In this document: positions 5,817 through 25,781 of the stretch, one piece after another | Layout: every line of letters begins with the position of its first letter | Position numbering within the stretch: the stretch's first letter is position 1 | Source of the DNA: an uncultured Thermoleophilia bacterium | Lineage (GTDB): Bacteria > Actinomycetota > Thermoleophilia > Gaiellales > Gaiellaceae | DNA length: 64,000 bases | Direction of reading: 5' to 3' | NCBI GenBank assembly: GCA_963758345.1 | Contig: CAVWVD010000009.1 | Location: 3,077 to 67,076, forward strand | Program-made: the position numbers and the translations under genes | The notes under the pieces: model-generated | Databases searched by the model: none | Told to the model about the DNA's origin: nothing | What the model saw: the letters and a program-made list of their open reading frames with translations, nothing else

Positions 5817-5843
5817 CTCGTTGTGCGAGTGGACATTAGAGGA

Positions 5844-5871
5844 CTAATCATTAGCATACTAAGCGTACGCT
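5844..5871. promoter_or_regulatory. Two short perfect palindromes in the AT-rich divergent SHOCT/MarR intergenic region (candidate MarR operator)
   Basis: CTAAT-C-ATTAG at 5844..5854 and AGCGTACGCT at 5862..5871, read directly. This is the only AT-rich stretch between the two divergent starts. Confidence 0.4.
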
Positions 5872-5890
5872 ATCCGTAAAGCCTCGTACG

Positions 5891-6334: not shown

Positions 6335-6340
6335 GGCGGC

Positions 6341-6388
6341 TTGACATGCAGCCGTGTGGCTGCGTATATTACGCAGCCAGATGGCTGC
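6341..6388 (+). promoter_or_regulatory. Sigma-70-like promoter (TTGACA-18 nt-TATATT) bracketed by two GCAGCC-N4-GGCTGC palindromes
   Basis: TTGACA at 6341..6346 and TATATT at 6365..6370. Palindrome 1 is 6348..6363 and palindrome 2 is 6373..6388; the second overlaps ATG 6381. Confidence 0.55.
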
Positions 6389-8071: not shown

Positions 8072-8145
<74 letters not shown>

Positions 8146-9167: not shown

Positions 9168-10090
9168 CCGCAGTTCGTCGTTCGCTCCTGCTCCTGCTGC
9201 TCGTCGGCCTGGCCGCGTGCGGCGGCGGCGGTGGCGACTCGAAGGATCAGTCGCCCGAGCAGTACCGCTACGACGCGGGCGCGAAGCTCGGCTACCTCGA
9301 CAAGGGCGTCGTCAGCCAGGCGGCGGGGATCACGGTGCACGACGTTTCGTTCGCCAGCCCGCGCGGCGGACGCGTCCAGGGCTACCTGACGGTTCCGCCC
9401 GGCGACGGCAAGTACCCCGCCGTGGTCTTCCTGCACGGGTCAGGCGGCTCGCGGCTCAATTTCGTGCCGGAGTCGAGCTGGCTCGCCGGGCGCCGCGTGG
9501 TCGGGTTGACGATCGACTCGCCGTTCGTCCGTCCGGGCCCCAAGCTCGAGGGCCTCGCGGGCCTGCGAAACGAGCGCAACCTGAGCGACCAGGCCGTCGT
9601 CGACGTGCGCCGCGCGATCGACGTGCTGCAGTCGCTGAAGCAGGTCGACGGCGACCGGATCGGGATCCTCGGGTTCAGCGCGGGCGCCAAGACGGCGGCC
9701 ATCGCAGCCGGCGTCGACTCCCGGGTGAAGGCAGCCGTGATCGTCTCGGGCGCCGCGCCCAACCTGAACGAGTTCGTGAACGCGTCGCCGCCGGCGGTTC
9801 GGCCGCAGGTGCGCTCGATCCTCGGGCCGACGGATCCGACGCGCTACGTCGGCGACGCCAAGGGCATGCTGCTGATCCAGATCGCCAACGGCGACACGTT
9901 CGTCCCGCGCTCCGACCTCGACCGGATGGCGAAGGCGGCCGGCGACGCCGAGGTGAAGCGCTACGACGGCGGGCACAAGCTCGTCACGTTCGCGCCGGCG
10001 ATCCACGACGAGCTCGACTTTCTCTGGGATCAGCTCGGCGCCGGGAAGGACGCCGTTCCGGGCGCGTTGACCGGGCCCGTCAACGATTAG
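9164..10090 (+). CDS. Paralogous lipoprotein alpha/beta hydrolase; probable CTG start overlapping the upstream stop (CTGA)
   Basis: The track ORF starts at GTG 9335, but the same frame upstream reads (L)TAVRRSLLLLLLVGLAACGGGGGDSK. That is a lipoprotein signal paralogous to the upstream gene. No ATG, GTG or TTG lies in frame upstream. The body has HGSGGSR and GILGFSAGA. Confidence 0.7.
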   Translation: MTAVRRSLLLLLLVGLAACGGGGGDSKDQSPEQYRYDAGAKLGYLDKGVVSQAAGITVHDVSFASPRGGRVQGYLTVPPGDGKYPAVVFLHGSGGSRLNFVPESSWLAGRRVVGLTIDSPFVRPGPKLEGLAGLRNERNLSDQAVVDVRRAIDVLQSLKQVDGDRIGILGFSAGAKTAAIAAGVDSRVKAAVIVSGAAPNLNEFVNASPPAVRPQVRSILGPTDPTRYVGDAKGMLLIQIANGDTFVPRSDLDRMAKAAGDAEVKRYDGGHKLVTFAPAIHDELDFLWDQLGAGKDAVPGALTGPVND

Positions 10091-10711
10091 CTAGCCGCGG
10101 TGAACGACCTCGCGCTCGTCGTCGCGCGCGGGATCGGCCAGCGGCAGCGCGTCGTGCGACCAGCCGGCCCGCTTCCACTGGGGCACGGGCGTCGTGCAGC
10201 CCTCCTTGGGCACGAAGCGTGAGTGGCTCACGAGCTGGTACTGGTGGATGTAGCGCGGGCAGTTCGGGAACACCTGCTCGGCGCGTACGCGGATGATCAG
10301 CTGCGCTTCGGGGTACTCCGCGAGCAGCGCGTCGTCGTCGTGGAACGAGGCGACCCCGTTGAGCCTCAGGCGGCGCCGCTCCTGGAAGTCGATGAAGAGG
10401 ATGCCGACGTGCGGGTTGACGAGCAGGTTCCCGGCCGACAGGTACATGCCGTTGCCGTCGTAGCTCGGGAAGGCGATGGTGCGCTCGTCGACCACGCGGA
10501 CGAAGCCGGGCGCGCCGCCCTTGTACGAGCAGTTCGGCCGGCCGTGGCCGTCGGCGGTGGCGAGGAAGAGCATGTCGGAGCGCTCGATGAAGGCGCGGTC
10601 GTCGGCGTCGATGTGGTCGCGCACGAGCCGCTCGTCGATCCGGTCGGCGATGCGACGTGTGTCGAACCGCGCCTGGAGCGTGCGGCTGCCCTCGTGGTAC
10701 GTCCCCGCCAT
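10091..10711 (-). CDS. Pyridoxamine 5'-phosphate oxidase family (FMN-binding split barrel) protein
   Basis: ORF 10091..10741, start trimmed to the second Met (MAGTYHEG). Motifs MLFLATADGHGRPNCSYKGG and NPHVGILFIDF are typical of the PNPOx-like fold. Confidence 0.75.
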   Translation of the reverse strand: MAGTYHEGSRTLQARFDTRRIADRIDERLVRDHIDADDRAFIERSDMLFLATADGHGRPNCSYKGGAPGFVRVVDERTIAFPSYDGNGMYLSAGNLLVNPHVGILFIDFQERRRLRLNGVASFHDDDALLAEYPEAQLIIRVRAEQVFPNCPRYIHQYQLVSHSRFVPKEGCTTPVPQWKRAGWSHDALPLADPARDDEREVVHRG

Positions 10712-10770
10712 GGAGCGATGATGGTCGCTCGCGGCCGGCACGGCAAGCCCGCCGCGTACGCTCGATTGCC

Positions 10771-11904
10771 GTGACGACGCTCGACTGGATCGCCGCCTCG
10801 GTGGCTGCGCTCGCGGCGATCGCCGGGCTGCGGCGCGGGCTGCTCGTCAGCGCACTCTCGCTTGGGGGCGTGCTCGTGGGGGCCCTGATCGGTGGGCGGA
10901 TCGCGCCGCACCTGCTGCCGTCGGGCTCGGCGTCGCCGTACACGCCGCTCGTCGCGCTCGCCGGGGCGCTCACGTTCGCGTTCCTGCTGGAGGGGGCCGG
11001 CGCAGTCGCGGGCGGCTCGCTGCGCGCCGCGCTGCCGCTCGGAATCGCGCGGCGCCTCGACTCGGCGGGTGGGCTCGTGCTCGGCGCGGTGACGGGGCTC
11101 GCGGTGGTGTGGGTGCTCGGCGCGGTGGCGCTGCAGGTGCCGGGACAGCCCGACCTGCGCCGGGCGGCGCAGCGGTCCGAGGTGCTCAGGCGCCTCAACG
11201 AGATCGTCTCGCCGCGCGCCGCCCTGCAGGTGCTCGCCCGGGTCGATCCCTTCCCGGCGCTCGCCGGGCCGGCCGTGCTCGTCGAGCCGCCGGACCCCGC
11301 CGTGCTGCAGGCACCGGGCGTGCGCAAGGCGGCGCCGAGCGTGGTGAAGGTGCTCGGAACGGCGTGTGGGCTCGGGATCGCGGGCAGCGGCTGGGTTGCG
11401 AAGGACGACACCGTCGTCACGGCTGCGCACGTGGTCGCCGGCGAGGACGACACGACGGTCGCGCCGCCGGAAGGCGCGCCGCTGCGGGCCGACGTGGTCG
11501 CCTTCGACGCGAAGAACGACGTCGCCGTGCTCCACGTGAGCGGGCTCGGCCGGCAGCCGCTCGCGATTGTCGACGCTCACCGCGGCGACCGCGTGGCGAT
11601 CCTCGGTTACCCGGGCGACGGCGCGTTCACCGCGACGCCCGGGCGGATGGGGAGCACGCTCACGGTCGCGGCCGACGACGCGTACGGCCACGGGCCGGTG
11701 GTGCGCACCGTCACGGGCTTCCGCGGCCGCGTCCAGCACGGCAACTCCGGAGGACCGGCCGTGAACGAGCGCGGCGAGGTGGAGGCGACCGTCTTCGCCG
11801 CCCGCGCGGGCAGCGACTCGGGCTACGGCGTGCCGTCCGCGATCGTCCGCAAGGCGCTCGCCGGCGCGAGCGGCCGCGTCTCGACGGGCGCCTGCGCGCC
11901 GTGA
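10771..11904 (+). CDS. CvpA-domain membrane-anchored S1 serine protease (MarP-like)
   Basis: Frame of ORF 10657..11904, start at GTG 10771. The N-terminal TM bundle is VTTLDWIAASVAALAAIAGLRRGLL... The C-terminal part is trypsin-like: TAAHVVAG (His), NDVAVL (Asp), GNSGGPAV (Ser). Confidence 0.85.
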   Translation: MTTLDWIAASVAALAAIAGLRRGLLVSALSLGGVLVGALIGGRIAPHLLPSGSASPYTPLVALAGALTFAFLLEGAGAVAGGSLRAALPLGIARRLDSAGGLVLGAVTGLAVVWVLGAVALQVPGQPDLRRAAQRSEVLRRLNEIVSPRAALQVLARVDPFPALAGPAVLVEPPDPAVLQAPGVRKAAPSVVKVLGTACGLGIAGSGWVAKDDTVVTAAHVVAGEDDTTVAPPEGAPLRADVVAFDAKNDVAVLHVSGLGRQPLAIVDAHRGDRVAILGYPGDGAFTATPGRMGSTLTVAADDAYGHGPVVRTVTGFRGRVQHGNSGGPAVNERGEVEATVFAARAGSDSGYGVPSAIVRKALAGASGRVSTGACAP

Positions 11905-11928
11905 GTCGCGGGACATGTCCGCGGGCGG

Positions 11929-12066
11929 TTAAAACCGGTGCCAGGCACCGTCCGGAGAGGCGCACGGCTCTGTAACGCATTCCGCACCGGGACGCCGCGA
12001 ACGGCTTGTGTTCGAGGTTCGCGAGCGTTGCGCGGTGCCGAACACCGGTGCCAGGCACCGGTTTAA
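11929..12066 (+). repeat. MITE-like intergenic repeat, copy A, with palindromic hairpins at both ends
   Basis: The left end is TTAAAACCGGTGCC-A-GGCACCG (hairpin 11936..11950). The right end is ACCGGTGCC-A-GGCACCGGT (perfect 19-nt palindrome 12044..12062) followed by TTAA. It aligns to the reverse complement of 34029..34169. Confidence 0.8.
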
Positions 12067-12119
12067 GGGCCGCGCGAAACTGTCGCGGCATCCGCACGGC
12101 CGGCGGGGCCGGACCGACG

Positions 12120-13926
12120 CTAGGACAGCAGCTCGAGCACCCGCAGCGGCCTGCGGTACGGGACGACGAGATAGACGCCGTCCACGCGGTCGCGCGCCTC
12201 GGCGAGCAGCTCCTTCGCGTGCGCCATGCCGACGTCCGCGGCGTCGGAGCCCGCGTCGCGCAGCGCGTTCTGCAGCGAGTCGGGCACGACGATCCCCGGC
12301 AGCTCGTTGTGGAAGCGCAGCGCGAGCCGGTAGCTCCAGAGCGGGCAGACGCCGAGCAGCAGCGGCACGGGCGACGAGCCGCCGATGCCGCTCGAGGAAG
12401 CGGTCGAGGTGCGCGAGGTCGAAGACGAGCTGCGTCATCGCGTACTGCGCGCCCGCCTCGAGCTTCTGGTGGAAGCGGTCGAGCTCCTGCTCCAGGTCGT
12501 CCGCCGACGGGTTGACGGCGACGCCGACGTAGAACGAGGTCGGTGCGTCGATCGGCCGGCCGTTCGCGTCCTCGCCGCGGTTGAGCCGCGAGATCAGCGC
12601 GGTCAGCCCGATCGAGTCGATCTCGTAGACGCCGCGCGAGCCTGGGTAGTCGCCGACCTCGGGCGGGTCGCCGGTGACGGCCAGGATGTTGCGGACGTCC
12701 TCCGCGTGCGCGCCGAAGAGCGCCGACTCGAGGCCCATCACCGTCGAGTCGCGCGTGGTCAGGTGCGGGATCGTCTCGATGCCGCACGCGCGCTGGACGA
12801 TCGCGGACGCCGTCACCGCGCTCATCCCCGCGCGGGCGCCCGCGTTGTCGTTCACGTCCACGAAGTCGACCAGGCCGGAGTCCTTGAGTGCCTGGGCGGT
12901 CTCGACAAGGCCGCTGAGGTTCGCGCCGAGCGGCGGGTCGAGCTGGGCCGACACGACCCATTCGCCCTCGCGCAGCGCGCGCGCCAGGCCGGTCTCCATG
13001 TGCTCGCCGCCGAGTGCGACCACCAGCTCACGCTCGTCGAGCACGAGCGGCCCGGGCGGCTGGCGGTCCTCGGTCACCGCCCTGCGGATCGCGGCGATCT
13101 CGGCAGGCGTCGTTCCGCAGCAGCCGCCGATGATCTTCGCGCCGAGCGATCCCGCATAGGCGGCGAACTCGGCGAAGTACTCGGGGTTCGCGTGCGGGTA
13201 GATGACGCGGCGGCCGGAGAGGCTGGCGAGACCGATGTTCGGCAGGGCGGCCAGTGGCCGGCCGTTGGCGCGCATCTCCTCGAGCGCCGTGAGCGCGGCG
13301 AGCAGGCCCGCGCCGTGGTTGGCGCCGATGGCCGCGATGTCGAGCGAGGCCAACCGCTCGGCCGCCTCGCGCGCGGTCACGCCCGCGATCGTCTCCGCGC
13401 GCTCGTCGAAGGTCAGGAGCGCCACGATGGGCAGGCTGGACACGCCCCGAACGGCCTCGATCGCGTCGACCAGCTCCTCCAGGTCGTAGAAGGTCTCGAT
13501 CATGAAGAGGTCGGCGCCGCGGCCTTCGAGCACCGACGCCTGCTCGCAGAACAGCTCGCGGCGCACGCGCGACGTCGCCTGCTCGCCGATCGGGCCGATC
13601 GAGCCGCCGATGAACACGTCGCGGCCGGTGATCTCGCGCGCGTCCCGGGCAAGCTTGACCGCCGTCGAGTTGATCCGCTCGAAGTCGTCCTCCAGGAAAT
13701 GCGTTGCCAGCTTGCGGCGGTTCGCGCCGAACGTGTTCGTCTCGATGAGGTCCGCGCCGGCGTTGATGAAGCTGACGTGCAGCGAGACGACCGCGTCGGG
13801 CGCGCGCAGGTTGGCCTCCTCGGGCGAGCGCAGGCGCGGGACGGCGCTCGTCAGCAGCGCGCCCATGCCGCCGTCGGCCACGATCACGGGACCGTCGGCA
13901 AGGCGCTGGAGGAAGGTCTCGCTCAC
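12120..13926 (-). CDS. Bifunctional homocysteine S-methyltransferase / 5,10-methylenetetrahydrofolate reductase (yitJ-like), interrupted by one frameshift near 12388
   Basis: ORF 11929..13926 carries the S-methyltransferase domain (ADLIETNTFGAN, GGCCGTTP) and most of MTHFR (VDVNDN, HLTTRD, AVTGDPP). After ...HLDRFLER the frame becomes nonsense. ORF 12120..12368 continues as IGGSSPVPLLLGVCPLWSYRLALRFHNELPGIVVP. Confidence 0.85.
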
Positions 13927-14464
13927 GCCGCAACTCTAGGCGTGGGTGAGCGCTCACCCGCCGTCCCTCGATCGAGGGTAATCGGTGAAGCAGGCTCGTC
14001 AACCTCGGAAGGGGGATTGGTGAACCGGCCCGGTGCACCCACCATGCGACTTGTAAGCGCCAGCCCCGATGCGGCGGGGGCGGTGCGAAAAGGACAGGGA
14101 ATCGGCCCCGTTGCGGCGGGGGCCGGCCCCCGGTCAGACAGTCGAAGAGCTAGGGCGGGGCCAGGGGCGGGCCCCGCTCAGCATTTAAGGGCATAGCTCG
14201 ATCGAGGGAGCCGGCGCGTCACCCACCGGCTCACCCAGGGCGAGTCCTCGCCGGGGGATGGCCCGGTGCCGGCTCCCACACGCATGAGGGCGCGGCTCTC
14301 ACACCGGGACAAGCGTCGTTCAAGCCTGCCCGGAGCGCTGCCGATGGCAGGGCCAACTCCTGTGCTGTGGGACTGACGGCAAATCGGTTCACGGCCGGAG
14401 ATGAAGCGGCGGGGCGACCCGCCGCTTCGCGTTCGGCGGATAGCGAACGTGGTATATTTATCGC
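13927..14464. other. 540-bp non-coding, highly structured GC-rich region; an unclassified leader, riboswitch or RNA candidate
   Basis: No convincing ORF in any frame. It has nested perfect helices and repeats, detailed in the findings. A strong hairpin at 14403..14428 and TATATT at 14452..14457 precede ATG 14465. Confidence 0.4.
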
Positions 14465-14881
14465 ATGCTTGCGATCTACTCGTCGCCCGAGTGGCTGACG
14501 TCGATCGTTGGGCCGTTGCTCTGGCTCATGCCTGTCGTGCTTGTCAGCGCGCTGGTGCTTGCCGCGGGCTCGGTGTTCTGGGAATCCGTTCTTAAGCTCG
14601 GGACGGTCGCTGAAGCCGCGACCGTGGCGCTCATGACCGTGGGTCTGATCGGATTCGTTGCGAGCGAAGACACATACCGTGACGACGGCACGAGTCGGTG
14701 GGACGCCTACAACTCGCACGGCCCGGTCCTGCTGGCCGTGTTCTTCGCAGCCTTCTCTGTCACGTTTCTGGTGAGCGCCTGGCGCCTGCGGCGGCGCGAC
14801 CTCGCCGTTGCCGGCTTCCTCGTCGCGAGCCTGGCGTCGGTCCTGACCTTCGCCGCCGTGCTCGCGAACGCGCTGAACTGA
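14465..14881 (+). CDS. Four-TM membrane protein of unknown function, paralog 1
   Basis: ORF 14465..14881 has four hydrophobic segments, the central loop motif SEDTYRDDGTSRWDAY and the C-terminus ANALN. Confidence 0.65.
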   Translation: MLAIYSSPEWLTSIVGPLLWLMPVVLVSALVLAAGSVFWESVLKLGTVAEAATVALMTVGLIGFVASEDTYRDDGTSRWDAYNSHGPVLLAVFFAAFSVTFLVSAWRLRRRDLAVAGFLVASLASVLTFAAVLANALN

Positions 14882-15243
14882 TGATCCTGTTCTTCGTGCT
14901 GCTGGTCGTCGCCGGGATGTCGTTTGCAGTCTCGACGTCGACGCCGTGGACACTCCGCTGCGGGACGCTCGTCCAGGCCGCCGCCCTTCTGCTGGGAGCG
15001 GTGTGGCTCGTCTGGTACGTGCAGAGCGAGGACTCGTATCGCGACGACGGCACGAGCAGGTGGGACGCCTACGGCGCGCACGACGCCACGATCACCGCAC
15101 TGATCGTCGCGGCTGCGGCGGTGCTCCTGCTCGTCGCGGCGCGCGTCCTGCAGCGGCGGTGGTTCACAATCGTCGCCTTTCTCGTCTCGATGGTGGCGGC
15201 GGGCTGGCTCGGCGCGGCGACGGCTGCGAACTCGCTGAACTAA
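14881..15243 (+). CDS. Four-TM membrane protein of unknown function, paralog 2
   Basis: Frame of ORF 14698..15243 from ATG 14881, which overlaps the upstream TGA by 1 nt. It has the same loop motif (SEDSYRDDGTSRWDAY) and the tail ANSLN. Confidence 0.65.
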   Translation: MILFFVLLVVAGMSFAVSTSTPWTLRCGTLVQAAALLLGAVWLVWYVQSEDSYRDDGTSRWDAYGAHDATITALIVAAAAVLLLVAARVLQRRWFTIVAFLVSMVAAGWLGAATAANSLN

Positions 15244-16016
15244 CCCTCGTGCAGGACGCGGCCTTCCAGGCCGCCGGCGACCGTGACGACCTGGCCGGTC
15301 ACGTGGCCCGAGAGCTCGTCCGAGGAGAGCACGACCACGACGCGCGCCACGTCCTCCGGCTGCGCGACCTTGCGCAGGGCCATCGTCCGCGTCACGCGCG
15401 CGAGTTGCTGCTCCGTGAGCGCTTCACGCGTCATCGGCGAGACCGTCCAGCCCGGCGCGACCACATTTACCCGCGCGCGCGGCGCGACGCGCACCACCTC
15501 GTTCTTCAGGCTCAGCAGCAGCCCGCCTGCGATCGCCGACTTGGCCGCCGCGTAGTCCGCATGACCCGCTTCGCCGACGAGGCCGGCGGTCGACGCGACC
15601 ATCACGAGGCTGCCGTGCCCCGAGTGGGCGACCTCGCGCAGGAAGCCGCGCGCGGTGAGGAACGTCGAGCGCAGGTTCTCGGCCAGCGTGTTCTCCCAGC
15701 GCTCGAGCGACAGCTCCCAGACGGGCACGTCCTCGCGCGGCCACACGCCTGCAACGGCGGCGCAGACGTCGATCCCGCCGAGCGCCGAACGGGCCTCGTC
15801 GAAGAGCCGGTCGGCCTCGTCCTCGCGCGTCAGGTCGGCGGCGCCCGTCGGTGCGCCGCCCAGCTCGGCGGCGACCGCGTCTGCCCGCTTGCGGCCGCGG
15901 TGGTAGTGGACGAACACGGACGCGCCCTCGGCCGCGAACGCGCGCGCGCACGCCGCGCCGATCCCGCCCGATGCGCCCGTCACGAGGACGCGCTTGCCCG
16001 CGAGGCCCGTCTCCAC
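15240..16016 (-). CDS. SDR family oxidoreductase
   Basis: ORF 15240..16016 has TGASGGIGAA (TGxxxGxG) and the YAAAK catalytic motif. Confidence 0.9.
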   Translation of the reverse strand: METGLAGKRVLVTGASGGIGAACARAFAAEGASVFVHYHRGRKRADAVAAELGGAPTGAADLTREDEADRLFDEARSALGGIDVCAAVAGVWPREDVPVWELSLERWENTLAENLRSTFLTARGFLREVAHSGHGSLVMVASTAGLVGEAGHADYAAAKSAIAGGLLLSLKNEVVRVAPRARVNVVAPGWTVSPMTREALTEQQLARVTRTMALRKVAQPEDVARVVVVLSSDELSGHVTGQVVTVAGGLEGRVLHEG

Positions 16017-16035
16017 GGGCCGAGCCTACGGACGT

Positions 16036-17466
16036 CTACGGGTTGAAGACGGCGGTAATGGTGCCGGGCGGCGAGGCAGCGTCGGCTGCGGCCTGGCAGG
16101 TGTTGCCGGCGATCGCCGGGCAGTTGTCCCAGTGGTCGAAGGTGCCGCCGCTCGCCGTTAGCGTCACGATCGTGTACGGGAAGAACAAAGACGTGCAGGT
16201 GGCGCCGCAGTCGATGCCCGCGGGCGCGCTCGTCACCCTGCCGGTGCCCGTGACGGCGACCGTCACCGGGATGCCCTTCTGGAACTCGGCCGAGACGAAC
16301 TTGACCGCGTCCATGGTGACCGTGCAGGTGGGGCTCGTCCCGGCGCTCGCGCAGTCGGCGCGCCAGCCGGCGAAGAGGTAGCCCGGCGTCGCGGCCGCGG
16401 TCAGCGTGACGACCGTGCCCGCCGGATAGGTGTACGAGCAGGTGTCGCCGCAGTCCACGCCCGGCACGTCGGCGGTGATCGTCCCGCCGGCCTGCGAGCC
16501 GGACCGCGAGACGTTCAGGCGGTTGCCCTTCCGTGAGAACGTCGCCGTGACGGTGATCTCGCCGTCGACCGGGAAGTTGCACGTGACCGACGTGCTGGTG
16601 CACTCGCCCGTCCAGCCGACGAACTTCGAGTTGCCGTCGGGCTCGGCCTTCAGGCGGACGATGTCGCCGGCCTCGAGGCTCGCGGTGCACGTTGCGCCGC
16701 ACGCGAGCGTTCCGTCGCTCGAGATCGTGCCGTCGCCCTCACCGGCCTTCTCGATCGTGACCTGGAACTGCTTCTTCACGAACTTGGCCGTGACCGTCTT
16801 GACTCCCGCGGTCTTCACGACGCAGGTCCCCTTCCCGGAGCACCTGCCGCTCCAGCCCTCGAAGGTGGAGCTCGTGTCCGGCGAAGCCGTCAGCGTCACC
16901 TTCTTGCCCGGTGCGTAGGTCTTCGCGCACGGCGCCTTGTCCGACGCGCACGTCGTCCCGCCCGGCGCGAACGTGACCGAGCCCACCCCGCCGCCGGCCA
17001 TGGCGACGTTCACGATGGCGGCCGAGCCGCCGATGCGGACGGCACACAGGATCCTCGCCGTCTTCGAGACCTTGCCCTTCTTGAAGCGGACGAGCACGTG
17101 AACCTTCTCCGCCCGGCCCTTCTTCTTGGCGAGCTTGTAGCGGAAGGACGTCTTGCCGATAAGGCTGATCGTCCGGATCTTCGTCTTCGCCTTCGTGCCG
17201 GCGAGCGAGGCCGAGACGACCGGCATCGAGCCCTTGGCCGGCTTGACGCGCAGCAGCCCGGAGCCGCCCTTCTTCAGCGTCAGCGTGCCGCACGTCGCCT
17301 TGGCGACGAGCGGCGCCGGCTTTTTCGGGGCAGGACGCGCTGTTGCCGCCGAGACGGCTGCCAGTGCGAACACCCCGAAGCTGACGGCGGCCAGCGCATA
17401 GCGCAGCCGACCCTTCCCTACGACCCCCACGGATCTCAGTGTCGTCAGTTTCGGGCGGCCTGTCAA
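16036..17466 (-). CDS. Secreted protein with a Lys-rich N-terminal region and four divergent InlB-B-repeat-like modules
   Basis: ORF 16036..17466 (TTG start; an alternative GTG lies at 17430). The signal-like segment is LRYALAAVSFGVFALAAVSAATA. A roughly 80-aa module recurs four times with the pattern G.G.V.S.P.GI.CG..C...Y..G..VTLTA.P....F.GW.G.C. Confidence 0.6.
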   Translation of the reverse strand: MTGRPKLTTLRSVGVVGKGRLRYALAAVSFGVFALAAVSAATARPAPKKPAPLVAKATCGTLTLKKGGSGLLRVKPAKGSMPVVSASLAGTKAKTKIRTISLIGKTSFRYKLAKKKGRAEKVHVLVRFKKGKVSKTARILCAVRIGGSAAIVNVAMAGGGVGSVTFAPGGTTCASDKAPCAKTYAPGKKVTLTASPDTSSTFEGWSGRCSGKGTCVVKTAGVKTVTAKFVKKQFQVTIEKAGEGDGTISSDGTLACGATCTASLEAGDIVRLKAEPDGNSKFVGWTGECTSTSVTCNFPVDGEITVTATFSRKGNRLNVSRSGSQAGGTITADVPGVDCGDTCSYTYPAGTVVTLTAAATPGYLFAGWRADCASAGTSPTCTVTMDAVKFVSAEFQKGIPVTVAVTGTGRVTSAPAGIDCGATCTSLFFPYTIVTLTASGGTFDHWDNCPAIAGNTCQAAADAASPPGTITAVFNP

Positions 17467-17501
17467 GCCGATCTCATGAAACCTTCATTGGCGCGGCCCT
17501 C

Positions 17502-19271
17502 TCAGTCGAGCAACTCCCCGGGGGCGTCGAAGTACCTGTCCCTGATCGCGTCGGCCGTTCGGTACGTGAGCGCGCCGATGGTCCCGGTCGGGTTCGCACC
17601 GGGGTTCTGCGGGAAGAGCGCTGCGCCCGTGACGAGCACGTTCGGCGTGTCCCACACCTGGCCGTACGAGTTCGTGACGGAGCTGCCGGGATCAGATCCC
17701 ATGACGCAGCCGCCCGTGGGATGCGTGCTCTGGTAGTCGTGGATGTTGTATGGCCCGAGCTCAGGCTTCTGCGCGACGATGCGCGTCGGCCTCATCGCGC
17801 GCATGATCTCCTGCGACCGGGCGTACATGAACCGCCACATCCGCTGCTCGTTGTCGTGCCAGTCGAACGTGAGCCGGAGGAGCGGGTTTCCGTAGCGGTC
17901 GCGGTAGTGGGGGTCGAGATCGAGGAAGTTGTCCTCGTACGCGATGCTCTCGCCTTCGGTGTTGATCCCCGCGTACGAGTCCCAGTTGCGGCTGATCTCG
18001 CGCTTCCAGTCGGCGCCGTACGTCGCTCCGGTCTTCGTCATCAGCCCTGTCACCGAGTTGACGGGCTCCCGCTCGCACGGCTCGGAGAAGAGCTGCATCC
18101 CGCCGATGAAGTCGAGGTTCCGGTGATCGAAGACGTCGCCGTTGTAGTCGTAGAGGATCTTGATCGTGCAGGTGTTGCCCATGTACATGTTCAGCCGCCT
18201 GCCCTCCCAGAGGCCGACCACCGTCTGCGGGTAGATCTGGTACGTGTAGTTCCGCCCGACTCGACTGCGGTCGTTGCCGACGCCGCGAGGGTGCGCACGG
18301 CTCCGTGAGAGCATGAGCAGCCGGTTGTTCTCGAGCGTGAACGCCGACACGACGACGAGCTCGGCGGGCTGGAAGTGCTCTTCGCCGTGGGCGTCGACGT
18401 AGGTCACGCCGGTCGCTCGCCCGCGGTCGTCGGTCTCGATCCGGGTCACCTTGGAGTCGGTGCGAACCTCGTACCGGCCCGTGTCGAGCGCGATCGGCAG
18501 GTGCGTGTTGACCGGGCTCGCCTTGGCGTCGACCTCGCAGCCGAAGCGCGTGCAGAACCCGCAGTACATGCAGGCGGCGTGATGGTTGCCATGGCCGTCG
18601 ACCCATGCCCGCGATGCGATGCCCGCCGGCTGCGTGAACGGGTGCAGCCCGAGCTGCCCGGACGCGTCGGCGAACATCTGCGCGAACGTGTTCACCTCGA
18701 GCGGCGGATGCCGGAAGCCGCGGCTGCGCGGCGCCTCGAACGGATTGCCGCCGGGGATCTTCCGGCCGCGGACGTTGCCGGCCTGGCCGGAGGCGCCGAT
18801 GTCCCACTCGAACGCGTCGTAGTAGGGCTCGAGCTCGTCGTAGGTCACCGGCCAGTCCTGAACCGTCGAGCCGGCGGGGAGCTTGCCCTCGCCGTAGCGC
18901 TCGATGACGTGCGAGCGGTAGCGGAAGTCGGTCTCGAGGTAGCGCCAGAGCTGCGCCGACCAGTGGATCGCCGAGCCGCCGAGGCCCTCTCCCGGGTTGA
19001 ACGACCCGTACTGGCGCATTGGCAGGGCCGGCGCGCGCACGTTCGGCCGCCACGTCCACGTCTCGCGCGCGAGGTCGACCATCATCGCGTAGCGCACGGA
19101 GTAGCGAAGGCTGTCGTGGTTGTGGGCAAACTCCGGGTACGTCCAGCGCGACGAGCCCTGCTCGATCGACACGACGCTGTGGCCGGCGGGGCAGAGCTTC
19201 GCCGCGAGGATCGCGGCTGTCCAGCCCCCGCCGACCGTGACCACGTCGACGCTCGGATGCTTTCTCGCCAT
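17502..19271 (-). CDS. GMC family FAD-dependent dehydrogenase (gluconate 2-dehydrogenase flavoprotein-subunit-like)
   Basis: Intact 589-aa ORF. The N-terminus is VDVVTVGGGWTAAILAAKL and the length and C-terminal region are GMC-type. Confidence 0.85.
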   Translation of the reverse strand: MARKHPSVDVVTVGGGWTAAILAAKLCPAGHSVVSIEQGSSRWTYPEFAHNHDSLRYSVRYAMMVDLARETWTWRPNVRAPALPMRQYGSFNPGEGLGGSAIHWSAQLWRYLETDFRYRSHVIERYGEGKLPAGSTVQDWPVTYDELEPYYDAFEWDIGASGQAGNVRGRKIPGGNPFEAPRSRGFRHPPLEVNTFAQMFADASGQLGLHPFTQPAGIASRAWVDGHGNHHAACMYCGFCTRFGCEVDAKASPVNTHLPIALDTGRYEVRTDSKVTRIETDDRGRATGVTYVDAHGEEHFQPAELVVVSAFTLENNRLLMLSRSRAHPRGVGNDRSRVGRNYTYQIYPQTVVGLWEGRRLNMYMGNTCTIKILYDYNGDVFDHRNLDFIGGMQLFSEPCEREPVNSVTGLMTKTGATYGADWKREISRNWDSYAGINTEGESIAYEDNFLDLDPHYRDRYGNPLLRLTFDWHDNEQRMWRFMYARSQEIMRAMRPTRIVAQKPELGPYNIHDYQSTHPTGGCVMGSDPGSSVTNSYGQVWDTPNVLVTGAALFPQNPGANPTGTIGALTYRTADAIRDRYFDAPGELLD

Positions 19272-19272
19272 G

Positions 19273-20268
19273 TCAGCCGCTCGCCGTCTGGCGCGTGCCG
19301 GCGAGCGGCAGCACTGCGCCGTCCTGGGGATGGCCCGGGTGCATCGACGGCATGTCGCGCAGGCTCTGCACTACGACGGCGCGCCCCGTGTTGCAGCTCG
19401 TATGCCGTGTACGCGCGCTGGGCGCCCGGGTAGCCGATCAGCCGCCATCCGGCGAGATCGCGGTTCCCGCCGTAGATCGGGTCGGAGAACATGCCCTCGT
19501 TGACGTCCGCCTGCAGCATCGACAGGAACGCCGACGGCGATGGATCCTTGAAGAAGCGCTTGAGCCGCTTGCCCATGTTCTTCGCGGCGGCCGAGGGCGG
19601 CTTCGCGCCAGGCGCCTTCGAGGCTGTCGGCGACGGCGTCTTCGTCGCTGCCATCCCCTCCAGGATCGCGTCCTGCACCGTGTCGCCGAGTGCGGCGAAC
19701 GGCTTCCCGTAGAGTCGCCCGCGAGAACTTCTCGAGCGCGCGCAGCCCCTCGCGGTACGACTTCTGCGGCGTCGCTCGGACTGGAACCCGTAGCGGGGCA
19801 GCTCCTTCATCGCGACGTAGGGCGTGCCGCCGTGGAAGCCCGGCGCCCGCCGCGCCCTTCGCCGGCTTGGCGAACGGCTCGCGGAAGTAGGTCTTCGTCG
19901 CGAACGACGAGAAGCGCGCGAGCTTCGCGTCGATGTAGGTCGTGACGCAGGCCTCGCGCGCGCCGGGTCGGCAGCAGTCCCCGGGATGAGCCGCGCGGCG
20001 AAGGCGTCCACGTCCTGCGCTTCGGGCGCGGTGAAGAAGCTAAGTAGATGTGGCATAAGAGCGGCCGCTGCGACGGGCGGCAGCGGATGGGAAGCCCTCA
20101 CGCCGACAGTGTCGACCCGATAGAGCGCGACCGCCTGCTCATCCTCGCCGCACGACGGCGAGCGGCCCCGCGACGCGCGACGGTGGCGGCGAGCGTGCCG
20201 GCGCGGCCGAAGGAACCGCTTCCTGGGCAACATCGCGTTCGATTAATGCGGGGCTCGGTGTCGTCCAT
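19273..20268 (-). pseudogene. Gluconate 2-dehydrogenase subunit 3 (gamma, Tat-signal) family gene, readable only across at least 7 frame switches
   Basis: Hand translation in alternating frames gives MDDTEPRINRT / LPRKRFL / GRAGTLAATVA ... MPHLLSFFTAPEAQDVDAFAARLIPGTAAD / PGAREACVTTYIDAKLARFSSFATKTYFREPFAKPAKGAAGAG / FHGGTPYVAMKELPRYGFQSE / TPQKSYREGLRALEKFSRA / LYGKPFAALGDTVQDAILEGM...GYPGAQRAYTAYELQH / RAVVVQSLRDMPSMHPGHPQDGAVLPLAGTRQTASG-stop. Confidence 0.7.
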
Positions 20269-20290
20269 GGCGCTCCTGTTCGATCAGTGG

Positions 20291-20649
20291 CTACAGCAGG
20301 TAGGCGGCGATGTCGCGAGCCTGCGTCTCGCACGAGGCCGAGATTCGGCATCAGCGTGTTCGGGGACGATCGCCTGGGGGTCCCGGATCCAGGCGACGAG
20401 GTTCGCGGGCGTGTTGGGGAGGCTCCGGCGATCGTTCGCGCGTCGGCGAGGTGCGACGAGGGACGGGCCGACGTGCGCGTCGGCGCCGTCGATCCCCGCG
20501 ATCGTGTGGCACGCACCGCACCCGTAGGCCTCGATCAGCGGCCGGCGCGCGCGAGGCGTCTCCGCCGGGAACGTCGACCGTCGTGCTCGCTCCCGCCGCA
20601 GCCGGCGGCGAGCGAGGAGAGCGGCGAGCAGGATCAGCGTCGCCCTCAT
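20291..20649 (-). pseudogene. Class I c-type cytochrome (lipoprotein), readable only across about 7 frame switches
   Basis: MRATLILLAALL / SLAAGCGGSEHD / VDVPGGDASR / PLIEAYGCGACHTIAGIDGADAHVGPSL / SHLADARTIAG / SLPNTPANLVAWIRDPQAI / PNTLMPNLGL / SCETQARDIAAYLL-stop. CxxCH heme motif is present. Confidence 0.7.
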
Positions 20650-21013
20650 CCGCTTCGGCAGGTGTCGACCGACGAAGGACGCCCGCTCCGCCCATGAGGA
20701 TGAGCGAGCAGGAAGAGCAGGCTCGCGAGCGAGCCGAGGCGACGCCTGCGAACTGGATGGAGCGCGTCGCTCCGCGCCGACCGACGCGGAGGACCCCGAA
20801 CGACGCGCGAGCGCGCCGAGCGCCGCCGAGAGGCGGCGACGACGGTGATCGCGAGCGCATACGTGCGCGAGCCCGGAGTCCCAGAGCGACGCTGTCGCGC
20901 GGCCGTCTGAGCAGCGCCGCTTCCGCGACCCCGTAGCCGGCGAGCAGCTGGAACGATCCACGCGAGCGCCCCGCCGAAGACGGCGTAGAGCGACGACCGC
21001 GCTGCGTGTCCAT
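20646..21013 (-). pseudogene. Small membrane protein (possible oxidase subunit IV-like), frame-shifted
   Basis: ATG 21013 lies just after the oxidase stop. Hydrophobic pieces occur in alternating frames (LYAVFGGALAWIVQLLAGYGVAEAA, ALAITVVAAS, LLFLLAHPHG). The TGA overlaps the cytochrome c ATG (ATGA). The function call is weak. Confidence 0.35.
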
Positions 21014-21020
21014 GCGGTCG

Positions 21021-23555
21021 TCACAGGTGCGGCGAGAGGTAGACGAACAGGTAGACGAAGAGCCATAGCGACGGTGACGAAATGCCAGTAGAGCGCCGTC
21101 GCTCTCGACGGCCTCGTGGCGCTCGCGGCGATAGAGCACCGCGCCAGAGCGAAGAACTGCGTCCACGCGAGCAGCAGCAGGCCGGCCGACCACGTGCAGG
21201 AAACGTGGATGGTGACGATCGTGTAGAAGAGCGATCCGTACGCGTCGGTCTGCGGACGGAACGAACGTCGAGGTATCTCGCGGTACTCGAAGCGCCTGCG
21301 TTCCGGGAAGCCGAGCGACGAGCACGAACGTGCAGGCGAGCATGATCCGCAGGCGCCGTCGACTTGTCGCTGCGGATCCCGCGCTCGGCGGCGTGTACAC
21401 CGTGCACGCTACGCAGCGAGGAGGAGCAGCGTCATAGACGTGTCGCCTTCAGCGAGCTTCGGGTCGGCGATGCCGTCGGGCGGCCAGGCACCGCGCGGTC
21501 TGAAGCGAGAGGTAGAAGTACGAGCACGATAAGAACGCGCGAAGAGCGTCGCCTCGGTAGCGATCGCGAGCAGCCATGCCCCAGAAGGCGGTCGAGCAGC
21601 GTGATCGGCGATAAGCCGGGCGCGCGACGGCTACGTCATGCAGCTCACGGCTGACTCCTCGCGCGGGCGGTGCCACGAGATGCGCCGGCCGCGAACGACA
21701 CCGGCCACCGCCGCCAGCGCCGAGCGCCCGTCGAACTCGACCATCAGCGCCGACGGCAGACGAGCGACAGCGCGAGCGCGACGAGCAGCGGCGACCAGGA
21801 GCTCTCCGGGCATCGCGCAGCGACCCGCGACGTCGGCCGGCGAGCACGGCGTGGTCGCCATCGTCCGTGCTGTGTCCCTCCGGGCAGCACCGCGCCACGC
21901 TCGCGGTCGAAGCGCGTCCCAGACCGGCGTCGGCGCTGTGCACGATCGGGATGCGCGCGAAGTTGTAGGCGGGCGGCGGCGAGCGACGTCGCCCACTCGA
22001 GCGTGTCGCCGCCCCAGGGGTCGTCGCCGGCGGGCGCGCCCGCGACGCAGGCTCCACGACGACGTTCGCGACGATCGACGAACGAGCCCGACGCGCGAGC
22101 ACGAACGCGCCGATCGTCGAGAGCAGGTTGCAGCATGTCCCAGCCCATCGCCGGTCGGATACGTGTAGACGCGCCGCGGCATCCCGAGCAGGCCCGACGA
22201 TGTGCATCGGGAAGAAGGTGAGGTTGAAGCCGACGAAGACGAGCCAGAAGCTCGACGACGCCGAGCGCGCTCGTCGAGCATGCCGGCCGGTGATCTTCGG
22301 CAACCAGTAGTGGATCGCCGCGAAGATCGGGAACACGGCGCCGCCGAAGAGCACGTAGTGGAAGTGCGCGACGACGAAGTACGAGTCGGTCACCTGCTGG
22401 TCGAACGGGACCGCGGCGAACATCACGCCGGTCAACCCGCCGATCACGAACGACGACGATGAAGCCGAGCACGAACAGGAACGGCGTCCGCAGCACGGGG
22501 CGCCCGCCGAGCATCGTCGCGAGCCAGGCGAAGACCTGGATCCCGCTCGGGATGGCGATCACCAGTGCTCGCCGCCGCGAAGAACGCTCAGCGAGACCTG
22601 CGGCAGCCCGACGGCGAACATGTGGTGCACCCAGACGCCGAAGCTGATGAACGCCGGTCGCCATCGTCGCGAGCGCGACCCACGTGCTGCGCGACGATCG
22701 GCCGCCGGGAGAAGACCGGGATGATCGTGCGAGACGATCCCGACCGCCGGCAGGAAGATGATGTAGACGTCGGGGTGCCCGAAGATCCAGAAGAGGTGCT
22801 GCCAGAGGAGCGGGTCGCCGCCGCGCGGCGACGTCGAAGAAGTGGAAGCCGAAGTGGCGCTCCAGCTCGAGCAGGAGGCAGGCGGCAGTGAGCGCCGGCA
22901 TCGCGAAGACGATCGCGAACGACGTGGCGAGCATCGCCCAGCAGAAGAGCGGCATGCGGTTGAGCGACATCCCCGGCGCGCGCAGCTTGAGGATCGTGAC
23001 GATGAAGTTGATCGCGCCCGCCGTCGTCGAGATCCCGAGGAAGATCAGCCCGAGCGCCGTAGAAGTCGATGTTCGGCCCGCGCGGAACGCCTGCGCTCGA
23101 CAGCGGCGCGTAGGTGAACCAGCCGGCGTCGGGCGCCGTGCCGATCGAGCAAGCTCGAGTACATGAACAGGCCCGCGGCGAGGAAGACCCAGTAGCCGAA
23201 GGCGTTCAGCCGCGGGAAGGCCATGTCGCGCGCGCCGATCATGCAGCGGCACGAAGTAGTTGCCGAAGCCGGACAGCATCGGCGTGACGAAGAGGAAGAT
23301 CATCGTGATGCCGTGCATCGAGAAGAGCTGGTTGTAGGCCTCGGGCGACGAGCACGTCGCTCGTTCGGGCGCGGCGAGCTGGACGCGCATGACGCAGCGC
23401 CTCGATGCCCGCCGGCGAGGAAGAAGAGCGAACGCGGTCACGCAGGTAGCGCACGCCGATGCGCTTGTGGTCGACGGTGGCGAGCGCCGTCGACGAGCGT
23501 CTCCCGGCTCTGCCCACGATGCGCGCAGCCGCTCGACGCTCGCACCGACGGTCAT
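21021..23555 (-). pseudogene. Cytochrome c oxidase subunit I followed by, or fused to, subunit III (caa3-type), heavily frame-shifted
   Basis: COX1 signatures are scattered over all three minus frames: ATVDHKRIGVRYL, YNQLFSMHGITMIFLFVTPMLSGFGNYFVPL, MIGARDMAFPRLNAFGYWVF, AINFIVTILKLRAPGMSLNRMPLFCWAML, LFWIFGHPDVYIIFLP, GVWVHHMF, VAHFHYVLFGG, LLGMPRRVYTYP. The COX3-like tail is LYWHF...WLFVYLFVYLSPHL. Confidence 0.8.
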
Positions 23556-24585
23556 CAGCGCAGGCTCTCGAGGTAGTCGAGGAGCGCCTGCAACTGCGGC
23601 GCCGCGGCAGGTCGGTGCCGGGCATCTTGTTGCCGGGCTTCAGATGCTGCGGGTCGAGGATCCAGCCGGCGAGATAGCCGCGCGAGTTCGGGATCGTTCC
23701 GGCCGCGAGCGTCAGGCGGCTCGCGATGTGCGTCAGGTCGGGCCCGACCTTGCCCGTCGCGTTCGTGCCGGCGATCGTGTGGCAGTAGACGCAGGCCGAG
23801 CTCGATGAAGCACTTGCTCGCCGCTGCTCCAACCGCGCGGGGGAGGACCTGCAGCGCCGGCTCGCCGTGCGCCGGTGGCCCACCGCGTCGTAGTCGGCGG
23901 GCCGCTGCGCGACGACCCAGAGCGCCATCTTCGCGTGCTGGATGCCACAGAACTCGGCGCACTGCCCGCGGTAGCGGCCGGGATGCTCGGCCCGGAACGT
24001 CACGACGTTCGTACGACCCGGGATGACGTCCATCTTGCGGTTGAGCTCCGGCACCCAGAGCGAGTGGACGACGTCGCCGCTCTGCAGGCGGACGTTCACG
24101 GTCTGGCCGACCGGGAGGTGGATCTCGTTTGCGTCCCGGATGCCCTCGTTCGGGTAGACGACGTCCCAGAACCACTGGCGCGCCGTCACGTCGATCGTCA
24201 TGTCGGCCGCCCGGGCGCCTGCCGGCGCAGTCTCGGGGATGGTGGCGAGCGTGAGGGCGAAGAGAACGATCAGCGCGAGGGCGGGAACGCCCGCGCCGCC
24301 GATGGCGACGAGCGCCCTACCCGATCCGAGCCGGGACGGCGCAGCACCGCGCCGAACCACGAGTGCGGCGAGCAGCAGCAAGAGGACGACGGCGACGACG
24401 ACCACCGACCCGGCGAACATGACCCACCAGAGCGTTGCGATCGAGCGTGCCGCGTGACTCTCCGGATGCGTCGCCGCCTGCTCGTTCCCGCCGCAGCCGG
24501 CGGCCGCGAGCAGAGCGGGCGCCGCCGCGGGTGCGAGCCACCGGATGTTCGCTCTCGCCGCCGTAACGGTCGGCCATCTCACCAC
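23555..24585 (-). pseudogene. Cytochrome c oxidase subunit II with a C-terminal cytochrome c domain; N-terminal 234 codons intact, at least 4 frame switches in the last 330 bp
   Basis: ORF 23239..24585 has lipobox LAAAGC and the CuA site HSLWVPELNRKMD...CAEFCGIQHAKM. The cytochrome c domain is split between frames: PPRGWSSGEQVL / FIELG / CVYCHTIAGTNATGKVGPDL...KPGNKMPGTDLP / AAAPQLQALLDYLESLR-stop. Confidence 0.8.
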
Positions 24586-24889: not shown

Positions 24890-25781
24890 GTGGAGCGTTC
24901 GCTCGCCATTTGCCTGCGCGGTGTCGTCAAGCGCTACGGGCCGATCACCGCCGTGGGCGGGCTCGACCTCGACGTGCCGACCGGGACCTGCGTGGGCCTG
25001 CTCGGCCCGAACGGCGCGGGCAAGTCGACGACGATGCGGCTGCTCACGGCGCAGTCGATCGCGGACGAGGGCGAGCTGGAGGTGCTCGGCTTCACCCTCC
25101 CCGGCGAGTCGAAGCAGGCCCGCGCCCGCTGCGGCGTCTCGCCGCAGCTCGACAACCTCGACGTCACGCTGACCGTCGAGCAGAACCTGCTCGTCTTCGC
25201 GCACCTCTACCGGATCCCCCGCAACGAGCGGCACGCGGCGATCGAGCGCGCGCTCGAGATCGCGAACCTGGGTGACCGGCGCGACACGCGGGTCGACAAG
25301 CTCTCGGGCGGGATGCGGCGGCGCCTGCTGATCGCCCGGTCGCTCGTGCACCGGCCCGCAGCTCCTACTACTCGACGAGCCGACCGTCGGGCTCGACCCA
25401 CAGGTGCGGCAGGAGCTCTGGGCGCTCATCGATCTCCTCCGCGCCGAGGGCACGACCATCCTGATGTCGACGCACTACATCGAGGAGGCGCAGCGCCTCG
25501 CCGACACGGTGCTGATCATGTCGCACGGCAAGTCCGTCGCAGCGGGCGCCCCGGCCGACCTGGTCGCCGAGCATGCGGGCCGCGACGCGGTCGAGGTGTA
25601 CGGGACGCCGGCGCGCCTGGCCGAGGTCGAGGCCGAAGCGGCCGCGGCCGGCTGGCGCACGCGGCGCACCGGCACGAGCGTCGCGGTTCTCGGCGCGGAC
25701 GGCAACGCCCCGCCCGGCGAGCGGCGGCCCGCAAATCTCGAGGACGTGTTCGTGCTCCTCACCGGGGAGCAGATCGACTGA
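24890..25781 (+). CDS. ABC transporter ATP-binding protein (NodI/DrrA-like), one frameshift near 25358
   Basis: The frame of ORF 24704.. from GTG 24890 has Walker A GLLGPNGAGKST and signature LSGGMRRR, ending ...SLVHRP. ORF 25404..25781 continues with (LLLLDEPTVGLDPQV)RQELWALIDLLRAEGTTILMSTHYIEEA. Confidence 0.8.

Follow-up and report, generated by a model that had tools for sequence, protein, structure and literature searches.

Genes at the Oxidase Locus

The window analyzed here is a 64,000-nucleotide stretch of a contig from an uncultured Thermoleophilia bacterium of the Gaiellaceae. Its minus strand carries an oxidase gene cluster that runs into the genes of a dehydrogenase. The ctaC gene (23558..24585) encodes COX2 with a C-terminal cytochrome c domain (Pfam COX2, 70.9 bits; Cytochrom_C, 31.2 bits) and contains the motifs CAEFCGIQHAKM and CVYCH. 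Its codons 1-234 are clean, and three to six frameshifts follow between 23,606 and 23,886. The neighboring ctaD gene (COX1; 21649..23555) holds at least 26 frameshifts, 20 of type +1, six of type +2 and none of type -1, in addition to two shifts at 22,284 and 22,258 that compensate each other. When the frame is corrected, its product covers Pfam COX1 from position 1 to 436 of 436 at 522 bits, compared with 144 bits for the longest raw open reading frame. The ctaE gene (COX3; 21024..21618) has at least 10 frameshifts with its middle part incompletely resolved, and its corrected product scores 70.7 bits against COX3. A subunit II that combines a cupredoxin/CuA domain with a fused C-terminal cytochrome c (CxxCH) marks the predicted oxidase as caa3-type; after frame correction the COX1 and COX3 genes lie adjacent on one strand, while in the sequence as given their frames are interrupted.

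Three further genes follow on the same strand. A gene for a small membrane protein of no Pfam family (20708..21078) has at least two frameshifts, probably more, as it aligns poorly; it is kept in the operon of relatives. A small cytochrome c gene with the CGACH haem motif (20290..20645) has about six frameshifts, and its corrected product matches Pfam Cytochrom_C. The gamma subunit gene (Gluconate_2-dh3; 19279..20271) has about nine, and its frame-corrected product matches PF13618 at 88.7 bits. Next to it lies the gene of a GMC oxidoreductase resembling the gluconate 2-dehydrogenase alpha subunit (17502..19271), an intact open reading frame of 589 codons with the Pfam domains GMC_oxred_N and GMC_oxred_C, whose product is identical to a database protein (P0001). 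The Pfam results agree with the gene identities proposed in the initial annotation, from the caa3 genes ctaC, ctaD and ctaE through cytochrome c to a broken gamma gene beside an intact alpha gene, and the genes are arranged as in four related loci (L001, L003, L005, and L010).

Extent and Borders of the Indel Block

Frameshifts were counted with a purpose-written frameshift-aware protein-to-DNA alignment, using the intact orthologous proteins of locus L003 as queries. The indel-dense block spans 19372..23886 (~4.5 kb) and contains at least 58 frame-disrupting indels, or ~13 per kb, with the leftmost event at 19,372 in the gamma gene and the rightmost at ~23,886 in ctaC. All minus-strand genes in this interval, namely gamma, cytochrome c, the small membrane protein, ctaE, ctaD and, over its final ~330 bp, ctaC, can be read solely by hopping between frames. 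Plain tblastn likewise splits ctaD and gamma across several frames. The events lie 79 nt apart on average (coefficient of variation 0.93, Poisson-like), and the GC content of the block is normal (0.68-0.72).

The same picture was obtained independently of homology. In a phase plot of GC at third codon positions (GC3), one coding phase persists for over 1 kb in each flank, and between 19.3 and 23.9 kb the phase flips at intervals of a few dozen to a few hundred bases. A three-state phase HMM placed 40 of the 120 phase switches of the window in kb 19-24, at 6, 10, 9, 9, and 6 per kb compared with 0-5 elsewhere. The initial annotation, made from the sequence by eye, had described frame hopping from about 19.38 to 23.88 kb with more than twenty switches in about 4.5 kb, and both the phase plot and the alignment bear this out, the alignment with a higher count.

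The block has sharp borders and divides an operon pair, with gamma broken and the GMC alpha gene intact. The GMC gene served as the left-flank control and showed zero gaps against seven orthologues; together with the undamaged first 234 codons of ctaC, it confirms the clean flanks reported earlier. In the remaining 59 kb of the window, two frameshifts were confirmed (~12,390 and ~25,348) and one junction was ambiguous (~3,246), against the five or so isolated frameshifts estimated before. One confirmed lesion (12380..12400, minus strand) lies in the MTHFR domain of a homocysteine S-methyltransferase/MTHFR gene, and Pfam MTHFR spans the junction once the parts are stitched. The other (25338..25352, plus strand) lies in an ABC transporter ATPase gene, at the junction between LIARSLV and (H)xPQLLLLDEPT, which is spanned by Pfam ABC_tran. 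These isolated lesions strike unrelated housekeeping genes and are of the same +1 type as those in the block. Lesions are concentrated ~250-fold in the 4.5-kb patch (~13 vs. ~0.05 frameshifts per kb).

Indel Spectrum and Sequence Context

A multiple alignment with six orthologues was used to separate the indels specific to the window. Insertions comprise 48 of one nucleotide and 13 of two, and deletions comprise six of one nucleotide and one of two. The ratio is therefore ~61:7 (~9:1), and ~90% of events are window-specific insertions of 1-2 nt. Insertion counts per 300-nt bin in the conserved core of ctaD were identical whichever orthologue was used.

None of 33 insertions is of the homopolymer type, vs. 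27% in a simulation of random insertions on intact orthologues. The inserted base differs from both of its neighbors in the window, and simulated insertions avoid both in only 48% of cases. A placement in short C or G runs had been suggested for several sites; it holds for the few deletions (for example GACCC-GGC at 19,968), and most events are non-homopolymer insertions. In 31 aligned event contexts, neither a shared motif nor a slippery site was found. The codon phase of the insertions is roughly uniform, and random insertion fits these phase data nearly as well as a mixed-haplotype origin does. A synonymous third-position doublet of two different bases is feasible in 23 of the 33 events, compared with 47% under the null (p ~0.008).

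Apart from the indels, the genes look well preserved. No in-frame stop codon occurs in frame-corrected ctaC, ctaD, or gamma, in line with the earlier remark that the segments between switches are free of stops. Corrected ctaD shares 65-71% identity with its orthologues, which share 64-73% among themselves when close pairs are excluded, and its GC3 is 0.958, within the 0.89-0.97 of the orthologues. Neither excess amino-acid divergence nor GC3 erosion was thus found in corrected ctaD relative to intact orthologues, and corrected ctaD and intact GMC each have a best database match of 80%.

Orthologous Loci in Related Genomes

The oxidase operon is essentially intact in nine Gaiellaceae MAGs, the exception being one Nanopore MAG (MFD08700.bin.3.300, locus L012) of the MFD-LR catalogue. 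Four Illumina-assembled loci (L002, L007, L009, and L011) have no frameshifts in ctaD, ctaE, cytochrome c, or gamma. Locus L010 has three frameshifts, and a further three Nanopore loci show little or no damage. The comparison with related loci that had been recommended with the initial annotation fits an artefact.

In L012, a 2-kb stretch of ctaC and ctaD contains 26 frameshifts, at the density and with the +1 bias seen in the window. The borders and the frameshift positions differ between the two, and sites coincide no more often than by chance. Of the 11 events that could be resolved in L012, nine fit the doublet reading. Three Gaiellaceae bins of sample MFD08700 hold the oxidase locus. The catalogue was assembled with Flye 2.9.2 in --meta mode followed by one round of Medaka (PMC12313526).

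Origin of the Block

Several observations indicate that the block is, with high probability, a consensus error confined to one stretch of a long-read metagenome contig and not the biological state of the genome. An error patch would leave damage in long-read assemblies that is absent from short-read relatives, and this is the pattern among the loci compared; it would also leave indel-only damage together with isolated lesions elsewhere on the contig, and both are present. The preference of the initial annotation for a consensus or assembly problem over pseudogene decay is supported by the insertion bias, the lack of other damage and the clean short-read orthologues. Residual errors of MAGs assembled with Flye and Medaka resemble the block in being confined to indels, in splitting conserved genes and in producing isolated frameshifts elsewhere, as well as in the second block in L012. 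They differ in that the block is concentrated in one patch and consists of insertions that avoid homopolymers, not of deletions. The textbook residual error of Nanopore sequencing is the homopolymer deletion, and the non-homopolymer insertions, being atypical, count against reading the block as an artefact. In the MFD-LR catalogue itself, errors were linked to low coverage and to long homopolymers, and fragmented genes were screened for (PMC12313526). The window would presumably stem from such a Nanopore, Flye and Medaka pipeline, as P0001 is recorded from the same kinds of source (NCBI and ENA) as the MFD MAG proteins.

Under a local consensus error, assembly or polishing would have written ~60 spurious single bases, with a few doubles, into 4.5 kb; the adjoining sequence would have been called almost perfectly. 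The consensus was probably built from mixed reads, either of two co-existing haplotypes or of close populations sharing conserved oxidase genes, and where reads disagreed both alternative bases may have been retained side by side. Collapsed strain or haplotype heterogeneity would go with the sharp borders, with a conserved operon common to co-occurring relatives and with the third-position doublet excess, which in the window and in L012 together is suggestive of this mechanism. On the other side, the codon-phase signal of the window is weak. Since retention of both alleles also predicts some events that look like homopolymer insertions, the further assumption of a separate homopolymer correction is needed; separate correction of homopolymer length or a run-length-encoded consensus would explain why no spurious base extends a run. 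A possible though less favored technical variant is that one or a few noisy reads bridged a stretch of thin coverage and their errors outlived polishing. The lengths of the blocks (4.5 kb, and 2 kb in L012) are of the order of a read, and sharp borders, Poisson spacing, absence of a motif and a roughly uniform codon phase would all be expected. Raw long-read noise, however, brings mismatches and homopolymer errors, and the block has neither homopolymer-type insertions nor excess substitutions. Thin coverage would also leave unexplained why two MAGs are affected in the same conserved genes, and the MFD pipeline, if it is the source of the window, demands a minimum read coverage of 8 for large data sets (PMC12313526).

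The biological explanations have to account for the same indel spectrum. Very recent pseudogenisation, in which the lineage lost its caa3 oxidase together with the gamma subunit of the dehydrogenase and the cluster decays through small indels, would take the frameshifts of the deposited sequence at face value, and the breakage of ctaC and ctaD in L012 could signal a tendency of the lineage. Like the block, neutral bacterial pseudogenes contain multiple frameshifts in once-functional genes. They average ~4.6 indels each with accumulated substitutions, the insertion:deletion ratio is ~0.76 by count in curated Burkholderia pseudogenes, and slipped-strand mispairing acts mostly in homopolymer runs and short repeats (PMC6054270). 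The block, in contrast, has up to 26 indels per gene without a substitution signal and an insertion:deletion ratio of ~9:1, compared with ~0.76-0.94 in curated pseudogenes and mutation-accumulation data, and no inserted base extends a run as slippage habitually does (PMC6054270). Decay is disfavored because the deletions, slippage contexts, stops and extra substitutions that it predicts are all unseen: insertions outnumber deletions, ~60 indels come without nonsense codons, excess divergence or GC3 erosion, and lesions are shared with the broken relative no more than by chance. Sharp borders that split an operon pair and the same +1 lesions in unrelated housekeeping genes of the contig speak against it as well, and we regard pseudogenisation as improbable. 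Were the extra bases real here and, independently, in L012, either an insertion-specific, homopolymer-avoiding mutation of a kind not known would have to be aimed at the oxidase operon, or expression would depend on large-scale removal or bypass of nucleotides; this is very improbable.

The latter route would be genuine recoding, with the extra bases removed or bypassed by deletional RNA editing or serial +1 frameshifting and the oxidase still made. Insertion/deletion editing classically targets mitochondrial cox genes, and the cox cryptogenes of kinetoplastids and Physarum are edited at heritable, conserved sites by dedicated machinery. The block resembles them in that its oxidase genes become legible after many single-nucleotide corrections, with in-frame segments that are perfectly conserved and stop-free and nearly all events of one sign, +1. 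The likeness ends at this resemblance, as the host is bacterial and the sites carry no common motif. Programmed frameshifting takes place at a conserved site marked by a slippery or stimulatory sequence, and here the positions are unconserved in the closest relative and absent from the orthologues of nine other genomes, with random codon phase. Moreover, at least 26 sites in one gene exceed any known bacterial precedent by far, and lesions of this type turn up sporadically in genes unrelated to the oxidase. Recoding is accordingly the least credible of these explanations.

Implications for Genome Interpretation

The block is of little biological importance and useful for quality control. Long-read MAG contigs that seem clean, at ~0.05 frameshifts per kb, can conceal kilobase patches at ~13 per kb. 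Such patches can fall in one and the same conserved operon of separate MAGs and could pass for lineage-specific gene loss in studies of comparative metabolism. Their signature, namely insertions only, an inserted base that never equals its neighbor, Poisson spacing and intact GC3, can be used for automatic flagging. Gene callers will yield about a dozen fragments in the block, which should be merged. Under a consensus error, the true genome most likely carries, like its relatives, an intact cluster of ctaC, ctaD, ctaE, the small membrane protein gene, cytochrome c, gamma and alpha, and neither an aerobic terminal oxidase nor the three-subunit dehydrogenase should be recorded as absent from the organism.

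Extent of the frame-broken block

The GC content of the window is ~70% and its third codon positions are ~93–96% G+C, so that the reading frame can be followed without homology. The GC3 phase stays unchanged over the 1.77-kb GMC gene (17,502–19,271), the intact dehydrogenase alpha-subunit gene that adjoins the block, and over the first 700 nt of ctaC, while from ~19.3 to 23.9 kb it shifts at intervals of a few dozen to a few hundred bases. By a three-state phase HMM, kb 19–24 hold 40 of the 120 phase switches of the window (6, 10, 9, 9, and 6 per kb), and 0–5 per kb are found elsewhere, mostly at ordinary gene boundaries. The block extends from 19,372 to 23,886 and its base composition is normal. 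Its borders were searched for repeats that might betray a mobile element or a template switch; the matches were no better than chance, and both ideas were rejected. An RNA element was also discarded as an explanation, since the sole Rfam match in the window is a tRNA gene (8,072–8,145, minus strand), far from the block.

The intact proteins of the reference locus L003, from another MAG, were aligned to the window with our own frameshift-aware protein-to-DNA dynamic programme. This alignment placed 26 frameshifts in ctaD, 10 in ctaE, 9 in the gene of the dehydrogenase gamma subunit, 6 in the cytochrome c gene, and at least 2 in that of a small membrane protein. The ctaC gene has 3–6 frameshifts, every one within 23,606–23,886; two further calls, at 24,564 and 24,538 in the poorly conserved N-terminus, are put down to the alignment, since neither the ORF nor the GC3 phase is interrupted at these sites. 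Standard tblastn splits the window genes across frames as well. After frame correction, ctaC matches the Pfam families COX2 and Cytochrom_C, ctaE matches COX3, the small cytochrome c gene Cytochrom_C, and the gamma subunit Gluconate_2-dh3, while corrected ctaD covers COX1 from position 1 to 436 of 436 with 522 bits, compared with 144 bits for the longest raw ORF. The initial annotation had reported a frame-broken block here and had named its genes; the former is confirmed by the GC3 phase, both kinds of alignment, and the Pfam matches of the corrected products, and the gene assignments are borne out by these families.

Orthologous loci

The intact GMC protein matched 13 loci at 71–77% identity in Gaiellaceae/Gaiella and unclassified actinobacterial MAGs. 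The gene order ctaC, ctaD, ctaE, small membrane protein, cytochrome c, gamma, and GMC alpha is kept in several of them, and in these relatives each operon gene is one open frame. The comparison with orthologues that the initial annotation had proposed was carried out with the same programme as a control: ctaD, ctaE, cytochrome c, and gamma have no frameshift in four Illumina-assembled MAG loci (L002, L007, L009, and L011), and none or one was found in each of three Nanopore MAG loci. Near-identical DNA from which the insertions could be read directly was sought and none was found, the nearest ctaD and the closest other GMC protein (on a 2.8-kb contig) both being 80% identical. A search for a second copy of COX1 within the window was also negative. 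Several metagenomic relatives of ctaD (P0123, P0131, P0136, P0230, and P0238) are COX1-COX3 fusions of 808–837 residues, unlike the separate ctaD and ctaE genes of the window and the loci examined. The ctaD product has a C-terminal extension of ~90 residues with additional hydrophobic segments.

Kind of lesion

In a MAFFT alignment with six orthologous loci, the insertions specific to the window in the block comprise 48 of one nt and 13 of two nt, and the deletions 6 of one nt and 1 of two nt; some longer window-specific indels lie in variable regions. In pairwise alignments, all seven orthologues gave an equal number of insertions per 300-nt bin over the conserved ctaD core (bins 22,500 and 22,200, for example, have +5 and +4), and the GMC gene has zero gaps against all seven. 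For 33 “+1” events, every frame-restoring single-base deletion was enumerated and scored against the orthologue profile; the null came from scoring, in the same way, simulated random insertions into undamaged orthologues. The extra base hardly ever equals an adjacent one. None of the 33 is of homopolymer type, against 27% in the simulation, and 3 of 33 are ambiguous in this respect, against 26.5%; only 48% of the simulated insertions differ from both neighbours. The initial annotation had placed several sites in short C or G runs. This holds for the few deletions, which lie within short runs (including the GACCC-GGC at 19,968 that it had noticed), but most events are insertions outside homopolymers. 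Slipped-strand mispairing mostly affects homopolymer runs and short repeats (PMC6054270), so that the complete avoidance of runs by the extra bases points to software rather than a polymerase as their source.

The extra base is C in 11 cases, G in 14, T in 6, and A in none, and no shared motif was found in the event contexts. Events are spaced by 79 nt on average with a coefficient of variation of 0.93, which is near Poisson. With a tolerance of 1.5 score units, 23 of 33 events, against 47% in the null (p about 0.008), can be read as a synonymous third position written as a pair of unlike bases; the size of the enrichment varies with the tolerance. The codon phase is approximately uniform, and the best placement falls in the second codon slot for 12 of 33 events, matching random insertion. 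The strict idea that both alleles of a synonymous SNP were kept would leave the junction of codon positions 1 and 2 almost free of events and was rejected on these 12, most of which have small score margins; only the weaker third-position-doublet enrichment survives of it.

Damage in other contigs and elsewhere in the window

A comparable block was found in L012 (CAVWLK010000024.1, MFD08700.bin.3.300, 5,191–7,250), a locus from an independent Nanopore MAG whose source is a related member of the Gaiellaceae. Its 26 frameshifts, 20 of them “+1”, are spread over 2.06 kb: ctaC carries 8, and the first 465 codons of ctaD carry 18. Their density of ~12 per kb equals that of the window block. In L012 no damage is seen in the remainder of ctaD or in ctaE, cytochrome c, and the small membrane protein gene, and gamma and GMC have single frameshifts. 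The block borders differ from those in the window, and the frameshift positions overlap at chance level (one exact, about six within 3 residues). Nine of the L012 events were typed as synonymous third-position doublets, 4 as homopolymer, 4 as ambiguous, and 2 as other. For the MFD-LR MAGs, Nanopore data were assembled by Flye 2.9.2 (--meta --nano-hq) and the result was polished once with Medaka 1.8.0; the authors of these MAGs also tested for errors linked to Nanopore sequencing (PMC12313526). The window may have a similar origin, since the database entry of its GMC protein, which occurs once, follows the pattern of the MFD MAG proteins.

The density of GC3 phase switches was also tried as a finder of further blocks. 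It gave a false positive at 17–22 kb of the orthologous locus L004, the method being invalid at low GC, and in L010 and L012 the switch-dense regions mix short or repeated genes and could not be interpreted, with tblastx finding no orthologues for them; we therefore do not claim that such blocks are common. The L004 stretch (17,000–21,767) has a GC of 0.59–0.63 compared with about 0.70 and no GC3 signal, and is probably foreign DNA. The start of the L010 contig (CAWKEV010000009.1, MFD08700.bin.2.86, ~8,900–17,181) is duplicated against itself in both inverted and direct orientation: the GMC 3′ end recurs inverted at 16,774–17,177, and peptide-coding segments are repeated on both strands. An assembly artefact by fold-back or duplication is the apparent cause. 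The ctaD gene of L010 has three −1 frameshifts.

Within the window, isolated +1-type frameshifts lie at about 12,390 (12,380–12,400, minus strand), in the MTHFR domain of a bifunctional homocysteine S-methyltransferase/MTHFR gene, and at about 25,348 (25,338–25,352, plus strand), in an ABC transporter ATPase gene directly upstream of its permease. Pfam matches span both junctions in the stitched proteins, and the extra base of the ATPase gene, at CCC|G|CAG, may be a surplus G or a surplus C in the C-run. These two sites show that the contig consensus is error-prone in general. Near 3,246 (plus strand), aldo/keto reductase and AAA_33 P-loop kinase domains lie in adjacent frames, the former open for about 1 kb; either a fusion protein is frameshifted here too, or a stop codon has been lost.

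Origin of the block

The block is very probably not a real biological feature; taken as a whole, the data are best explained by a local consensus artefact. Real pseudogenisation is improbable and recoding scarcely credible, both being at odds with the indel spectrum, the absent substitutions, the non-conservation of the sites, and the lack of any motif. The preference of the initial annotation for artefact over decay is supported. Curated bacterial pseudogenes average ~4.6 indels each, with an insertion:deletion ratio of ~0.76 (0.94 in mutation-accumulation data), and are dated by their accumulated substitutions (PMC6054270). In the block, by contrast, insertions outnumber deletions by ~9:1, single genes carry as many as 26 or more indels, and substitutions leave no signal. 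Wherever codons of ctaC, ctaD, and gamma could be aligned, none is a stop, and corrected ctaD is 65–71% identical to its orthologues (mean 68.9), where intact orthologues average 67–73% among themselves. For the undamaged GMC gene, the window ranks likewise among the orthologues, and a database search gave top matches of 80% identity with corrected ctaD and with the intact GMC protein alike. Once corrected, the ctaD codons have a GC3 of 0.958, where the orthologues have 0.89–0.97. Identities of ctaE, gamma, and ctaC are lower, at least partly from stretches that the alignment did not re-frame.

As the technical cause, a patch of thin coverage would explain the Poisson spacing and the phase-blindness, but would account neither for the absence of mismatches and homopolymer errors nor for the same operon being hit twice. 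A heterogeneous read set behind the consensus, with the added assumption that homopolymer lengths were corrected separately, would account for the sharp borders, for the third-position doublet excess, and for the damage in both affected MAGs falling on the conserved COX2/COX1 core, which the two blocks have in common. Such an artefact is chiefly of use in the quality control of long-read MAGs, as a warning and through a signature by which it can be recognised. Unless reads show the contrary, an intact caa3-type oxidase and a three-subunit GMC dehydrogenase should be assumed for this genome.
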